Positions 19,500-60,423 of a stretch of 64,000 nt of DNA are shown here, piece after piece. Position 1 is the first letter of the stretch; each line of letters starts with the position of its first letter. A model generated the notes under the pieces. It made no database searches and was not told the DNA's origin. It worked only from the letters and a program-made list of their open reading frames with translations. Source of the DNA: Octopus vulgaris (lineage: Eukaryota); NCBI GenBank assembly GCA_951406725.2, contig OX597825.1, positions 84,258,001 to 84,322,000 of the forward strand, given 5' to 3'. Made by a program: the position numbers and the translations under genes.

Positions 19500-20650
19500 G
19501 GAGGAGGAGGAGGAGGATAATGATGAAGATGATGATCTTAGAATGTCTTGTTTTTATTGGAAATAATATCCAATAATTGTTTTGATAGAACTCGCAAGAA
19601 CAGTTTACCGTTTCATTCTTCCCATAAATTGGTGATGATACAACATTGACGACAATCTTTGGTAACATGATTCCAGCCCACGTTCTACACGTCCCACCTG
19701 TCTGTTTACGACGGTGACGCATTCAGGAAGGACTAGAAATGTATTCATGAACCTGAAGAGACTTCCTTCTCACACATCATCCGATGTAATAAAAGTGCAT
19801 CGCATAAACACGAATTGATGTTGCTTTGCTTTCATTCTGTTAGGAAAAACGTAACAAATACTCCACCACCGTCACCACCATCATCCCCAGCACTAATATA
19901 GCCAACGCCAACAACATAAAAAAAAACACACCACGGTCGCCCCCCCCCACCACCACACTGGATCCATTCCAAGCGACTTCATGGTAGTTCCTATGCCGTC
20001 CTAAAGCGTTTGGAGTAAAAGAACTCCATTTAATGTTTAAAATGCAATGAAGGCAATTTTAGCGGAACTTTTCTAACAATTTGAAATGTCTTTCATAATA
20101 TGTCCATATATATATACATATATATTCTATTAGGGGTTAAACTCGTGAAGGGATGGTTTCTACCAAGGAAATACCGGTTCAATACCAAGAGTTTTTTTTT
20201 GGGGGGGGGGGATTATTTTCCCTAAAATAATTTGTACATATATATATAGAAACATATAGTTTATATTCATATAAAAGAAGAAAAGGAAATGGACATTGGG
20301 AAGTTACTAATTGTTTATTATTAATAGCGAATTAAGCATCTTCACTAATTTTTGTTAATAATCATCTTCATTAATTTGCTGTTAATAATAAGCAGTTATT
20401 AACTTTCCAATCGCCATGTATATGTATGTATGTATATATGTATATAAACACACACACACAGACACACACACATATATATATATATATGTGTGTGCTTGTG
20501 TATATATAAGGTGTGAATTTTCAATAAATATAGTTTCCCAGTCATGATTAACAAAAGGCGAAACCGGTAGACTATGATGATATTCTGTCTCATAAAACTT
20601 ATAAAATATACATTGATTGTGTGCATTTTCCTTCTTTTATTATGCTCTCT

Positions 20651-20751
<101 letters not shown>

Positions 20752-20798
20752 TATGAGATTATTGTAGTTCGCTTGAAGCATTGTGCATTGTTTGTAAA

Positions 20799-21156
20799 CA
20801 ATAATAATATATAGTAATGATGTGTTTTGAATGACAACAATGCTCTATAATAAAATAACGGACTATAATAACTGTTGCAATTTAATCATCCATAGTCTGT
20901 TATAATATTTCGGAATGTAAAAATTCCTTCTTCAGATATCCCTAGGGATTAATCGAATCACTGCTACAATTGATTTTCCAACGGCGTTTTTCGAAAATCG
21001 ATTGTAGCAGTGACTCGATCAATCCCTTGGGACATCTGAAGAAGGGATTTTTACATTCCTAAACATTATATCAGGCTACGGATGATTAAATTACACCAGT
21101 TATTATAGTGCATTGTTGTGCCATTCAAAAAACATTATTACTCTTTATTATTATTG
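20799..21156. repeat. ~360-bp imperfect palindrome with a hammerhead motif in each arm
   Basis: Arms 20799-20978 and 20993-21156 are reverse complements around a 14-nt loop. Each carries CTGAAGA-A-GGRAT-ttttac-ATTCC-(G/T)AAA. (TA)n lies on both sides. Confidence 0.93.
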
Positions 21157-21229
21157 CTAATATATATATATATATATATATGGAAGTAGATAATATGTGA
21201 AAATTCGATATGTTGAATGTTTTACTCAC

Positions 21230-21339
21230 TTATTGTATAAAACCATATCAGGGAGCCAAAGTTTGTAGCAGGGTATTCTTAATGCTGTGATATTATGAAA
21301 ATCTATGGGATCCCACATCAAAAAGTCATCTTCCCACGC
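21230..21339 (-). CDS. Nicotinic acetylcholine receptor subunit, internal 110-nt exon (equivalent to canonical exon 4, loop A)
   Basis: Minus strand reads ctattttcag|GCGTGGGAAGATGAC...GTTTTATACAATAA|gtgagt = AWEDDFLMWDPIDFHNITALRIPCYKLWLPDMVLYN(N). Contains WxD, LxWDP and WLPDxVLYN motifs; 110 nt, phase 0/2; continues the 45-nt exon in frame. Confidence 0.96.
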
Positions 21340-21548
21340 CTGAAAATAGAAGTAAAACAAATCATTAAATCAGCCAATCGGCGTCTTTAAATGCATGCAG
21401 TTTTTCGACAACTCGGAAACAACGTTTTTCAGATGGTATTTAAAATCATAAATATACTTACTTGATAATCACTCTTTCAAAAGCATGGCCATACAAGGCT
21501 AAATCAAAAATAACATCTGGAATTTTAATCAAAAATATATATAAAGTG

Positions 21549-21933
21549 TGGAGGCGCAATGGCCCAGTGGTTAGGGCAGCGGACTCGCGGTCGTAGGATC
21601 GCGGTTTCGATTCCCAGACCGGGCGTTGTGAGTGTTTATTGAGCGAAAACACCTAAAGCTCCACGAGGCTCCGGCAAGGGGATGGTGGTGATCCCTGCTG
21701 TACTCTTTCACCACAACTTTCTCTCACTCTTACTTCCTGTTTCTGTTGTACCTGTATTTCAAGGGGTCGGCCTTGTCACTCTCTTTGTCACGCTGAATAT
21801 CCCCGAGAACTACGTTAAGGGTACACGTGTCTGTGGAGTGCTCAGCCACTTACACGTTAATTTCACGAGCAGGCTGTTCCGTTGATTCGGATCAACCGGA
21901 ACCCTCGTCGTCGTAACCGACGGAGTGCTTCCC
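21549..21933 (+). mobile_element. tRNA-derived SINE family B, full length with 12-bp TSD
   Basis: tggcccagtggttagg (A box), ggtttcgattccc (B box); atatataaagtg duplicated at 21537-21548 and 21934-21945. Confidence 0.93.
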
Positions 21934-24404
21934 ATATATAAAGTGCATTAAGTAATCATTGTATTCCGATTTCCTTCAGTTTTCAATGATTAGCAGATGA
22001 GCGTCTATCGTTCCACACAGGCACAACACAGGTTGCGTTTTCAGGTGTTTTGCATAATGTTTTCAGAAGTAACCCAATAGGTTTACCATTGATTCCATGA
22101 AATATTCACGGGTCCCGCTAGTGTATACATACCGTGTCTAAACAAACGTATTAGCTGGTCAGGAATAGGGTGTTTTTGATGAAAGAAATGCCCTCGCAGT
22201 ACTGTGGCTTTCTGGGAAGAAACAATGAAATCAGAAAATAACATGTCTGCTACCCAGTTCCGATGCAGCATCTAAATTCAATTAAAGTACACCTTGCGAC
22301 CCTAAAACGAGTCGGTCCTATAAAAAAATTGTTGTGTGCTGTATGTACAAAAGAGAACAAAGTAGCTTCTGATCATAATTCTGTACGTTCAGCACTGACC
22401 GAGCGTTAAACCAGAATAACACCATTGTATTCGTTTCAGTAATTGCGACAAAACGATCTCTTTGTGAGATATTGAAAAACATGTAAACCAGGAAATAATC
22501 AATGATAGAAACGAGAAGAATACAACATTGAATTGGAACAAGTCAATATGGGAATGTTTACCAGAATTTGAGACGCGGTCTTATATTCTTTGTTATGACC
22601 CAATTTCAACGTTCATTCCGAATGAAAACAGTTTTTTTGTTAATGACTTTCTTTTCACAAAATATCTTTTAACTGAAGAATCGCTTCAGACTTTGTCTGG
22701 GATCATTTGGAAAGTACTGTTGATCCATGCACGATAGCCACTGAGTACAAAGCAGCTCTCAAAACGATAAATTATTCAGCTTAATAGCATTCCGATATGG
22801 CGTATAGTAGCCACCTTTTTATTCATTTACTTATTTTTTGCCTGAATTAGATTCATTGAAAACAAGATAAATGGCTGTCATAATACATTAATTATAGCTA
22901 ATACTATTCACTGCCAACGGCCATGGTTTATAAAAATAAAATACAGTTAACACTTGTTTACTGCTGTTACACTCGCTGACTCGAAGCCTTGCATTAGCAT
23001 CGCCTTGGCAAGTTTCACTGCCTTACATAGAGACAAACAGACATAAAATCCAAGATTTTAAAGACATGGTGTTTCAATGAACCTATCCTAAAGAATTATC
23101 GTACGAATTGGATAGGAAAGTCTGTCAAAAAATTGATTTATAGGTTTCCTAAAGAGCATTTTCGATGGAGAAGTGAAACAAGGTGAGTGAGATATCCTGA
23201 AACTGAAAATAAAAAACGAGGCTTTTGATAGCCATGTTGAATAGTTGCTATATCCTTTACAACCACAATCGTACACGCTGGGGTAAAAGAAATTGGAATA
23301 TAGGTGTCGTGAAATACGGAGAGTATGCTATTTTTGTGAAATGGTCGGTGGAAAAACTGTCATTTATTATTGAGATTTCAGTGGGTATAATGCCGATGAA
23401 AAGTCTAGCCTTACGTTTGGCATTGGAAATCGCAGAGAATTCAACAATGCCTTTGAAAGAATCAACTGCCACCATCTAGTAATGGTAATAGTAGTAGTTT
23501 TTGTTGTTATTGCTGTTGTCTTGAGATGCTAATATCTTCGACTGATCAGTGGAATGGTTAACCCACAGTTACTGATAAAAATTAAACAGTAACGCTTGCA
23601 GCAGCGGAAGGAATGAGATCGCTTCACTTGCTAGATATAGCAACCAAAAGTTTCTGAAGTCTCACCAGATATCCTGAAAAAGCCCCAGAAAGACAGTTTG
23701 AATAATTTAGTCCCGGTTACACTGTGTAGAATCGGTGCAAATGTCATATCTATAATAATTTTTATCAATAATAGCAACAAAAACAACAATAGCAACAGCG
23801 TATTTGATGAATCCATTAATGATTATAATTGTTTTCAGTTTAGGAACAAAATTAGAAATTTGACTGAACGCCAACCACTTAAATAAACCCCATTATTTGA
23901 CTGGTACTGTATTTTATCCAACTTGGAGAAATGAAAGACAGGATTTGAACTAAAAAGGTAACGCTCTGAAACAAATAAGTATTTATTGTCAGGGGTATCC
24001 ATCAATGGGTGTCCATGCCTATTGATACAAACGTGGATCTAATGGTATCCAGTTTCTGTTCTATGAACAAAACTAAACGAATCATAAATCGCCAATGATA
24101 TCCTTACAAAGTTGTCCGAAATTTAGGACGGGAGGAAAGGATTGTGGAAACGATCCTCTCTGTTGCCTCAGAGACTGGTGACAAAGTGTTGGAGCAAGAA
24201 TATACACAAAGCGGAGACCTGGTCTGAAAGCTTGCCACAGCAACACCTCTACTCAGGAACTCAAAGAGGTGGTGTTCAACCGGGCAACGTTCAGAACGCT
24301 AAGAAATAGTTCAGAACGCTAAGAAATGAGACAATCCTCAAAGGGGTTCTGACTATTCTTCTCGTGTCAACGGTTTGTTCTTTTACTTTAGCGACTGCGA
24401 AAGG

Positions 24405-26365: not shown

Positions 26366-26713
<348 letters not shown>

Positions 26714-27577: not shown

Positions 27578-28094
27578 GCATCTATTTATTCTTTTTCTCC
27601 ATATGTATATGCATGCATGTATGCACACACACATATATATATATACGTATGTGTGTGTATACGTACATATATATTTGTGTATACATACATACACATCTAT
27701 ATACACTTAAGTTTATATATATGTACGCACGTATGTATGTATATATGTATGTATGTATTTCTTGTATGCAGCGTTAAGATATCAGTTTCCGTTTCCGAGG
27801 TGGTCTTTATTGTCCTTATAACCTGCTGGTACTCAAAACCGGTAAGGCTAGCTCTGCAGATAAGATCGGGAAAGACACCTGTCGCCTCGTTAAATGCTAT
27901 ATATTCACCCCAAACCTGTAAAGGTTATATATCTATACTTTAAGGTAATATATAAAGGTTATATGTTAGGTTCAAGATGATATAGATATCAAAATAGAAA
28001 CTAATCTGGAATTTGCAAACACTCTCTGTCTCTCGACTTATCCATCTCCCAATATTGCAACTGTAGCATTCGAACGTGGGACTCAGAAATAGCG

Positions 28095-28486
28095 TTAACA
28101 TCGAGGACTGAGGGAAAGAAAAATAGAAGTAGGTGGGGGAGAACTACGGTCAGGAGAAGGAGGAGGAGATGAAGAATGCCGAGAACAATGATGCTTTGGG
28201 AGGAGTTGGTTTTCTAACTACAAACTAAACTAAAAATGGAATATTAACTGTTACAGTCTACCTTGAAATGTAGGCATACATATAGCTAAATTTTTCTTCC
28301 ATTTGCTCAAAAAATATTTCCACAGCAGCAGAGATATAAAATCACTTTATAATGATCACCATTATAAATATATAGATATCGTCTGCTTTTCATTGTCCTC
28401 GGCCTTCTTCTTCTCCTCCTCCTTCTCCTGACCGTAGTTCTCCTCTACCTCCTTCTATTTCTCATTCTCTTTGTCCTGGCTGTTAA
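28095..28486. repeat. Inverted repeat, ~95-bp arms with ~200-bp spacer (foldback/MITE-like)
   Basis: gagaactacggtcaggagaaggaggaggagatgaagaatgccgagaacaatga versus tcattgtcctcggccttcttcttctcctcctccttctcctgaccgtagttctc. Confidence 0.9.
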
Positions 28487-28911
28487 AACTATTCAACAGC
28501 TCAGACCTCTATCTCTAGTCTACCAAGCCGTTAAAACATTAAAATATCACAATGTGTTAATAGAAAGCCAGGTATTTATTACAATAAATGCATATCACAG
28601 CAATCGGCACCGTATTTTACAGTTCATTTTGTTGCTAATCTGTTTATCTTCAATACATTATATATACAATGGAATTTTCGTTGCGGGTTAATCACATGAG
28701 AACGAACATAAGATTGCAGTTGCAAAGATTTGAATATTATTGCTTAGGTTCAGTTTTTTCTCTATGAAATATATTAACATTACTGTCACCTAGGAAACGA
28801 AGTAAATAAATAAATAAATATATATTGGTAATCAATATTAAACTTCTCCCACATATTATTCTCTGCGTGTGTATGTGTACGTATGTATGTGTGAGTACAT
28901 ATATGCTGTGT

Positions 28912-32574: not shown

Positions 32575-32811
32575 TAAAGTGATAGTATGTTGTCGACTTA
32601 ATTTGACAGTCCCATGAAAGGGAAGAATGCTACTGTTATTTAGCCCTAGGAAACACCGTTTCCTGTTGGACTTGTCTCTACTTTGAAAACATAAGGACAC
32701 ATGAAATGTGTCAAGTCCAACAGGAAACGGTGTTTCCTAGGGCTAAATAACAGTAGTATTCTTCCCTTTCGTGGGATGGTCACATTAAGTTGACAACATG
32801 CTATCACTTTA
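32575..32811. repeat. Near-perfect palindrome, 100-bp arms with 37-bp spacer
   Basis: taaagtgatag...tactgttatttagccctaggaaacaccgtttcctgttggacttg versus caagtccaacaggaaacggtgtttcctagggctaaataacagta...ctatcacttta. Confidence 0.95.
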
Positions 32812-44359: not shown

Positions 44360-44411
<52 letters not shown>

Positions 44412-44741
44412 ATATGTATATATATATATATATATGTAAATATATGTATATATGTATATATATATGTATATATATGTATGTATAATGTATATATGCACTT
44501 AAAGTTATTTGTATATGTATATATGTATATATCCACATACATTTACATATATGTATGTATGTATGAATGTATTTGTGTATGTATGTACGTTTTTATGCAC
44601 ATATTGACTTATAGAAAGATCCATGCACGTATATGTATAAGACCGATATCGGTACATTCACAAATACATACACACACACGGACACACATCTGTATCTATA
44701 TCTATATCTATATCTATCTATCTATCTTAATATATATACAT

Positions 44742-44824
<83 letters not shown>

Positions 44825-45318
44825 ATATACATTTCTGACTATAAAATTTAGGAATATACATATATTTTTGCGTGGTTGTCAAGCATATGCACAAATGAAA
44901 ATCATTCACAGATAAGTAGCGACTACAAACAAGGTAAAAACAATATATGAATACCGTAATCTATACCATTGACAAAGCCTGAATAGAAATATGCTTCGCA
45001 TTCATTATCCATTCTCAATTACATTTCTCAAGCATTCTTCGCTTTTCTTTTTATCCGTCAGAAGTCTGTTTAAGTAGTTTTCACATTAAATATTTCGAAC
45101 TGTTTGTTGTTTTGTGTGTTGTTATCTGCTACGCGCCTTCTGTGATAAATGAGAAATTCCATCTCGTAAATAATATCAAATATTTATCGACAACCCATTA
45201 ACTGCAGGCTTTTACAAAATAATTCTCGGTTTTTGCAGTTTTGCATATTTATTTGTATGTTTGTTTGTTTGTTTTGGGCCTTCGATTTTGTCTTCGAAGT
45301 ATTTTAATTTGTAGTTTA

Positions 45319-50333: not shown

Positions 50334-50829
50334 AAATCATTAGGAAAATATTGAAGACATAAACTCCGTGACTTAAACAGCGTGCTATATACCTTTCACG
50401 AGACGGTTTAATGGACAAGCTTATGCACACTGGATTATGCTTGAAATCCGAGATGTTAATTATACAGTAATGTCTCTACATCCAATTCTAAATTATTCGT
50501 ACTGTGAAATAAGAATATTGAAGCAAGAAAGATATTTCGCCTTGTTGTATTTAGCTACAGTCCTTTATGTTATTAGTTCAAATCTCACCGATGTCAACTC
50601 TGCCTGCCATCCTTGGTAAACTAAAATAATGGTCAGAAATCGGGATAGATTTTAATGGCCACTAAATTCCCCCCTGCTTTCCAGAATGTAAGGCTATGTG
50701 CATAAAGTCGAGATCTAGTATGGCATGTCTTTCATTTCCTTTCCCTCTCTTTCTTTCTCAGTCTTCTACGTCGCACATGTAGAACAAGGTAAACACATTT
50801 TACATTTCACTTCAGCCTGTCATATTTCC

Positions 50830-50857
50830 CTGATGAAGAAAATCTATCCGAAACGTC
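50830..50857 (+). ncRNA. Degenerate hammerhead motif
   Basis: CTGATGA-agaaaatctatcc-GAAA-CGTC; core intact, stem II mismatched, 3' strand of stem I missing. Confidence 0.55.
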
Positions 50858-51615
50858 CTTTTTTGCGGTTAAATGATATATTCCATTTTGTTAACATTTT
50901 GTACTCACTATTTATTGATAGAGACTATCACTATATTTAACATCATGACTCTCTGATGCCAGGTTAAAATGATACTGTCACATTCCACACTTCTTACTTT
51001 AGAGCTAAAAATACACATTATTATCGACATTTTTTATTTCATTAATCACAAAATCTGCACACAGCAGTGAAATCAATACACATAATATAGATTTATGGAA
51101 TCAACTACGGGTGTGTGTGTGTATTCATGTGTGTGTATGTGTATATGTCTGTGTGTATTTGTGTGTGTATGTGTGTGTGAGTGTATGTATATGTGTGTGT
51201 ATGTGTGTATATGCGTGTGAGAGCGTGTGTGTGTGAGTGTGTGTGCGTGTGTATATATGTGTGTATGTGTGTATGTATGTGAGTGTGTGTATGTGTGTAT
51301 GTATGTATGTGTGTATGTGTGAATGAGTGTGTGTTTGCGCGCGTGTGAAATGCTTATTGTAGTAGTTTAGTAGTTTAGCAGTACTCGTAGCTGTTAGAGT
51401 ATGCCTCTTGTCTAATGTTGCTTTCTCTTGACAGTTAAAAATTCCTGAAAACCTTCTCCACAGGTAATGAAAGCAATAAAAGTGAGCGTGCAAACCGTCC
51501 TCTGCTACCACAAAGCCTCTAAACCATTTACGCTCCTGAAGTACGAAGGTGAATCCAAGGGATCTTGGAGCAGTAAAAAAAAAAAAACAGTACATTAAAA
51601 ATGTATATAAATATA

Positions 51616-53365: not shown

Positions 53366-53410
53366 CTGGTCTAGCCACACGTTGGTCACTAAGACTTGAT
53401 TCTTCTCATC
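53366..53410 (-). CDS. Nicotinic acetylcholine receptor subunit, internal 45-nt exon (equivalent to canonical exon 3, loop D)
   Basis: Minus strand reads cttttatatttccag|GAT GAG AAG AAT CAA GTC TTA GTG ACC AAC GTG TGG CTA GAC CAG|gtaatt = DEKNQVLVTNVWLDQ. Canonical AG/GT sites, phase 0/0, and the 45-nt size conserved in nAChR genes. Confidence 0.96.
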
Positions 53411-60271: not shown

Positions 60272-60360
60272 ATGACAACAAAAGAATGAAAGAGACCTCG
60301 ATATTATGTAAATAGAGGAATTTATCTATAATATAATATGTGACAATTAGTCGGTTGCCA

Positions 60361-60423
60361 TAATAAAGCTCTGAGTTTCGGATATCGGGGCGGAAGGCTA
60401 CCCCGGCATCTCGTCAGCTATTA
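60361..60423 (-). ncRNA. Hammerhead ribozyme motif with GC-rich stem II, next to (ATT)n
   Basis: Minus strand taatag-CTGACGA-GATGCCGGGG-tagccttccg-CCCCGATATC-c-GAAA-ctcagagct-ttatta; core and stems I/II present, cleavage triplet altered. Confidence 0.7.

Follow-up and report, generated by a model that had tools for sequence, protein, structure and literature searches.

The question raised by this locus is what a long hairpin-forming sequence with two hammerhead ribozyme motifs is doing just after the 5' splice site of a nicotinic acetylcholine receptor exon in Octopus vulgaris. The original prediction held that the hairpin could induce A-to-I editing or affect the splicing of this exon, that its pairing would block any ribozyme fold, and that otherwise it would be a neutral inverted Penelope insertion. 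As argued below, the locus very probably harbours a dead Penelope-like insertion, in which two truncated 3' ends stand head to head in a (TA)n tract of the receptor intron, likely neutral for the host gene. The window is, throughout this text, the whole 64,000-nt stretch of DNA that was analysed.

An inverted repeat after a receptor exon

The inverted repeat spans 20799-21156 and comprises a 128-nt core, 87% complementary, together with 38-nt outer arms. Its minus strand is predicted to fold into one long hairpin (-202.9 kcal/mol), where 304 of the 358 bases and 103 of the 126 adenosines are paired and the longest unbroken helix reaches 27 bp. Folding of the reverse complement of 20750-21340, as originally suggested, returned this long hairpin with a z of -19.15 and no shuffle out of 100 as stable, which bears out the ~360-bp palindrome noticed at first; its distance from the donor, previously given as ~70 nt, is 73 nt. 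The span of 20799-21229 assigned to the element had to be corrected, as it extends to 20755 through a tail of the left arm and ends at about 21156, the remaining 21157-21229 being host intron. The arms meet at a 10-nt palindrome, which is not the loop of the hairpin. The parts of the locus are as follows:

20646-20754, no strand: (CT)n(TA)n microsatellite, probably the left part of the target (sequence)
20755-20992, minus: arm 1, 3' end (pLTR) of a Penelope-like family, oriented like the pre-mRNA (89-90% to the long copy L002, positions -49 to +181 from the core)
20755-20798, minus: optional tail of ~44 nt, in arm 1 only and overlooked at first (3' ends of 73 family arms)
20899-20940, minus: hammerhead motif of the minimal type I, in the sense direction of the pre-mRNA (stems, ATAT, core boxes and the unpaired A that precedes stem II)
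20988-20997, no strand: palindrome of 10 nt at the head-to-head arm junction (sequence)
20993-21156, plus: arm 2, 3' end of this family again, inverted and without the tail, about -46 to +138 (fold, alignment)
21031-21072, plus: second hammerhead motif, antisense to the pre-mRNA, broken at G12 (sequence, arm alignment)
21160-21181, no strand: (TA)11 tract, probably the target's right part (sequence)
21207-21249, minus: weak interrupted stem of 13 bp from exon end to intron start, over the donor, -6.3 kcal/mol (fold)
21230-21339, minus: coding exon of 110 nt, nicotinic acetylcholine receptor alpha-10-like gene (Pfam, AG/GT ends, protein records)
53366-53410, minus: preceding 45-nt exon of the same alpha-10-like gene

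Arm 1 is 5'-truncated ~50 nt ahead of its hammerhead core, and arm 2 carries an 18-nt deletion with respect to arm 1. No target-site duplication is readable, as (TA)n forms both flanks.

The exon at 21230-21339 is bounded by AG and GT, with a donor matching GTGAGT, and encodes part of a ligand-binding domain (Pfam Neur_chan_LBD, E 1.4e-9) whose peptide is identical to alpha-10-like nicotinic subunits recorded for O. vulgaris and O. sinensis. The intron with the hairpin is ~36.5 kb long, the next exon lying ~15 kb before the window. At 110 nt, the exon could only be skipped with a shift of frame, and it is included in all eight aligned full-length protein records that cover the region. Other copies of the Penelope-like family were absent along the host gene (window plus L073, L074 and L112-L114).

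The host gene holds five other long inverted repeats besides 20799-21156. Within the window there is a 237-nt hairpin of an unrelated repeat at 32575-32811 (arms 85% alike) in the preceding intron of the receptor gene, an inverted pair at 28088-28493 with 104-nt arms (86% alike) and a 199-nt spacer, and two palindromes made mostly of microsatellites at 26366-26670 and 44406-44832, the former with 26-nt unique outer arms flanking mirrored (TA)n/(TAGA)n tracts. Upstream of the exon, a GC-richer insert with a tRNA-like start (21548-21935) is presumably a SINE.

A Penelope-like family and its inverted insertions

A genome search with one arm produced 1416 candidates, 40 of them scored, with 46 matches at 79-95% besides the arm itself, and the best 30 were retrieved for comparison. 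Longer family copies are seen to continue from the arm into a GIY-YIG gene, which lies upstream of this end. A second genome search, performed with the nuclease protein (1876 candidates), gave 11 further loci (L032-L042), all of which hold the arm, continuous in 10 of them with the end of the GIY-YIG gene. Pfam detected GIY-YIG in L034 (E 7.8e-6, above the cut-off) and RVT_1 in L036 (E 1.9e-3, below it), while one of the five family proteins submitted had no match, and Atlas neighbours carry HTH_animal and GIY-YIG. The family thus has its reverse transcriptase (RT), its GIY-YIG nuclease and its terminal repeat in the order given for canonical Penelope-like elements (PMC8557442), and the arms are the 3' ends of a high-copy Penelope-like family with an RT plus a GIY-YIG domain at the C terminus. 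The linked gene and the inverted layout of the arms uphold the inverted Penelope insertion that had been named as the fallback. The nuclease has two inner cysteines, preceded by a Cys-rich C-x4-C-x7-C linker that is not the exact motif quoted in PMC8557442, where Neptune and Nematis are described with a Cys-rich CX2-5CxxC linker (reduced in Nematis) ahead of the nuclease and two cysteines between GIY and YIG. In L014 (286-861), a copy of the arm family has beside it part of a nuclease from a different Penelope-like family, with a linker of the CxxCxxC type. Among the papers listed in our literature searches, none dealt with the octopus family or with this locus.

The layout of the insertions was studied in 52 non-redundant loci, drawn from the arm search (29 of 30), a second search (12 of 30, the other 18 repeating earlier loci and being left out) and the nuclease search (11 of 12); these are best-scoring matches only, and the sample is consequently biased to well-kept copies. 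Arm ends were placed against the natural long copy L002. Among 73 arms the 3' ends are bimodal, with 36 at +176 to +182, 32 at +120 to +145 and five elsewhere, and the family therefore has an optional tail of ~44 nt. Head-to-head pairs of 3' ends occur 20 times in the 52 loci, this one included, and exactly one tail is found in 18 of these pairs, as at 20755-21156. Compact fold-backs (up to 500 nt) make up 10 of 41 arm-picked loci, a count from which L027, below the length cut, was left out, and their folding energy is -0.41 to -0.61 kcal/mol per nt (-0.47 at this locus). By rough estimate, the genome would contain 230-1100 of them. The arms of our hairpin differ by 10.9%, compared with 4-18% in 11 sibling fold-backs, and the ratio of 6:4 between G.U and A.C, taken for the transcribed strand (p 0.75), is ordinary among 12 fold-backs. 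In other words, the hairpin decays like its siblings.

The one-tail head-to-head layout is already described in print (PMC3846280, PMC8557442, PMC4209133). Inverted pLTRs, optional tails, head-to-head palindromic junctions and microsatellite targets are reported for endonuclease-bearing Penelope-like elements by Arkhipova et al. 2013 (PMC3846280) and Craig et al. 2021 (PMC8557442), and the insertion resembles those in its head-to-head inverted ends, single tail, 5' truncation and junction palindrome, as well as in its (TA)n target, which hides the target duplication, and in the RT followed by GIY-YIG. It differs in having no coding sequence between the arms, in belonging to an octopus family and in the length of the tail, ~44 nt in this family versus 30-40 in the elements of those two papers. 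In a lizard element, the tail is tied in vitro to two start sites of reverse transcription (PMC11167929). By analogy, the two arms may have been made from two alternative start sites, with and without the tail, and would then have been joined at the short palindrome.

With respect to the age of the insertion, the DNA contigs from organisms B, C and D extend over the exon and then end in the (TA)n tract. The flank diverges by 7/348 (2.0%) in organism C and by 14/290 in organism D, and since the arms differ by 10.9%, against 2.0% for the flank, the insertion likely predates the split from organism C. A 175-nt record of organism C that folds back on itself shows 2 differences in 86 nt from arm 1, compared with at least 4 differences in the best 70-nt windows of the other sampled copies, which is a hint only that it may represent the orthologous insertion. 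In four runs the arms are read thousands of times as deeply as the flank, a figure that does not give copy number. A neutral insertion is itself likely to be shared with relatives, so the absence in close relatives put forward as a sign of neutrality does not discriminate, nor would sharing show function.

Possible effects on editing and splicing of the exon

Could the insertion, neutral at first, have become an editing inducer? Its duplex would recruit ADAR and raise editing in the stem at the exon end, which covers Asp and Met codons, or at the donor. In the work of Daniel et al. 2014 (PMC4053975), editing rises when a short stem has a long hairpin, of any sequence, 150-300 nt away, and our locus recalls the Gabra-3 intronic hairpin and the inverted Alu pairs of that work in having a long repeat-derived hairpin shortly downstream of a Cys-loop receptor exon; unlike those inducers, it is known from its sequence and predicted folds, and its short stem is not significant. 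The predicted long duplex lies no more than a few hundred nt from the exon, the distance of 73 nt falls inside the range tested for inducers (PMC4053975), and most of the hairpin adenosines are paired. The exon itself lies outside the long duplex, and its own fold is ordinary (z +0.9 against shuffles, -0.65 to +0.65 in a second computation). The only candidate short editing substrate would be the 13-bp donor stem at 21207-21249, which has predicted pair probabilities of 0.6-0.84 but is matched by 119 of 500 shuffles.

Comparison among species provides arguments on both sides. The first 37 intron bases show no difference in organism D, versus 11/143 upstream, for which the chance is about 0.05-0.08. 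Against an inducer, no amino-acid variation in this exon is seen among four full-length Logan records for the ortholog of a related species, which may or may not carry the insertion. Two Thr/Ala differences compatible with A-to-I editing were observed in Logan records of the related species' ortholog (alignment A1, P0002 and P0013), both in other exons, and they count on the side of an inducer. One exon difference of organism D, Met to Ile, is no evidence of editing since an outgroup record has Met. In a supplement of PMC8382921, a published table of sites, none of four receptor terms had a match.

A broader comparison was made with 25 intron-bearing homologous exons, 12 intronless matches being set aside. 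Inverted repeats starting within 300 nt of the donor occur in 2 of the 24 other exons, versus ~1.75 expected from the inverted-repeat density in the same loci, and hairpins near homologous donors are thus not enriched. In another Cys-loop receptor gene, one sibling fold-back of the family (L027, i.e., L075 2206-2625 or G000:C21:36240005-36240424) sits in a 2.1-kb intron, ~228 nt beyond the homologous exon. It was picked by its arm DNA alone and is an independent insertion, as its junction differs. In this way, a family fold-back follows 2 of the 25 homologous exons, this locus included, and the family is absent within 1.5 kb of the other 23 (0/23). Under random placement of 1416 to 7000 copies, the upper number being assumed, some copy would fall within 1.5 kb of one of 24 exons with a probability of 0.04-0.17, and a compact fold-back within 300 nt of one of them with a probability of 0.0006-0.003; the coincidence was noticed after the fact. 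Tracts of (TA)6 are found within 300 nt of 9 of the 25 homologous donors. We regard the two fold-backs after homologous exons of two paralogs as an unexplained coincidence, which counts on the side of an inducer. The wider idea that Penelope fold-back stumps, a few hundred or more in the genome, are a ready source of octopus editing inducers, two of which would have been kept independently just behind the same exon in a pair of Cys-loop receptor paralogs to tune A-to-I editing or splicing, has a slimmer chance than the inducer at this single locus, which we already consider improbable: no pairing in the hairpin appears to have been kept, and neither the family elsewhere nor generic hairpins favour homologous donors.

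Two further observations were made among the paralogs. In another paralog (L104), the donor of the homologous exon is followed at 57-927 nt by an inverted repeat with 200-nt arms (73%) that does not belong to the arm family. Besides, a cluster of intronless receptor-like genes at G000:C15:56.9-57.4 Mb is probably the chemotactile receptor cluster, judging from PMC9068888.

Editing of the hairpin itself is another matter. In squid, edits in introns tend to lie over repeats and to belong to the ubiquitous type, robust recoding being of the neural type (PMC9068888), a pattern that fits bystander editing of the hairpin, and by analogy the hairpin is likely to be edited.

An effect on exon splicing, through donor access, exon definition or co-transcriptional timing, would be favoured by the closeness of the hairpin to the donor and by the predicted stem that partly covers it. 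We hold it to be very unlikely, in view of a long hairpin predicted to be self-contained and to leave the donor outside, of a donor that matches GTGAGT, and of an exon whose skipping would shift the frame and which is present in the protein records.

The hammerhead motifs and the fate of the hairpin

The hammerhead identity of the motifs is sustained by their fit to the minimal type of PMC4209133, although the details required revision. Of 38 aligned family arms, 22 show the core pattern and 4 have all three stems intact. Both core boxes persist in the pre-mRNA copy, as was claimed, at 20935-20929 and 20911-20908, with an unpaired A before stem II and stem II fully paired (5/5). The stems I and III of this copy had been called imperfect, which is right for stem I (4/5 paired) and wrong for stem III, where the 4-nt palindrome of the family, ATAT, is intact. 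The antisense copy in arm 2 has lost G12. The proposed consensus CGTT after GAAA does not hold for the family, since it occurs in none of the 38 arms, where TATT (26), TATC (4) and CATT (3) are found. Other hammerhead-like core words occur in the window at 12461-12493 (plus), 50825-50860 (plus) and 60360-60420 (minus). In the first two, GAAA is followed by CGT; they resemble minimal motifs of other families and are probably the source of that consensus.

Among the minimal hammerheads of metazoan Penelope-like elements, Cervera and de la Pena 2014 (PMC4209133) report pairs on opposite strands separated by 100-700 bp. As in those motifs, we find here a 5-bp stem I, an unpaired base before stem II (after A9), a G10.1-C11.1 pair and a small palindromic helix III (15.2-16.2). 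In contrast with the motifs described there, stem II has 5 bp in the octopus family instead of 7-8, and most octopus copies (26/38) have a U at the cleavage position. Rfam searches of 20780-21170 with E up to 10 gave 11 matches, none of them a hammerhead, and those of the whole window gave sub-threshold hairpin matches and no hammerhead among the matches listed. A retrozyme was ruled out, there being no tandem copies, and so was the permuted hammerhead of Naiad elements, given the ordinary strand order and the C-terminal nuclease.

With its core boxes, stem II and ATAT palindrome intact, the sense hammerhead might be thought to cut the nascent transcript before the hairpin forms, or to act in trans as a dimer. 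On the minus strand, the complement of the ribozyme (arm 2) is transcribed first and would already be present when the ribozyme emerges. In the folded pre-mRNA, the predicted pairing probability of stem II is 5e-15, in agreement with the earlier claim that pairing in the hairpin blocks the ribozyme. Stem I has a mismatch, single minimal motifs gave no cleavage in vitro (PMC4209133), and no second same-sense copy for a dimer fold exists along the receptor gene (window plus L073, L074 and L112-L114). Self-cleavage thus seems unlikely here, and cutting of the nascent transcript or in trans extremely so. Finally, a MITE of a DNA transposon, which the terminal inverted repeats around a variable interior resemble, or an assembly artefact is refuted by the RT-GIY-YIG gene that forms the interior of longer copies and by the asymmetry of the tails, together with variable inner truncation points, the divergence between the arms and a 108-nt read contig, possibly of the assembly's own sample, with 0 differences from arm 2, and the family loci compared do not fit the picture of a transposase-derived MITE with symmetric fixed termini and a constant target duplication.

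A dead, probably neutral Penelope-like insertion accommodates these results. Its arms would fold in the pre-mRNA into a duplex of ~150 bp, which probably draws unselective ADAR editing onto itself, would be removed by splicing with the 36.5-kb intron, and would keep from folding a minimal hammerhead of a type that appears to need a second same-sense copy, absent from the receptor gene.

For the Penelope-like elements, this locus is one more example of a described layout and a clean cephalopod record of it, with one tail, a palindromic junction and a microsatellite target. Since an estimated few hundred sibling hairpins lie near to or far from exons, the inducer idea could be put to the test across the genome, and should RNA data reveal that hairpins of this kind direct recoding, this would bear on how coleoid recoding sites are chosen.
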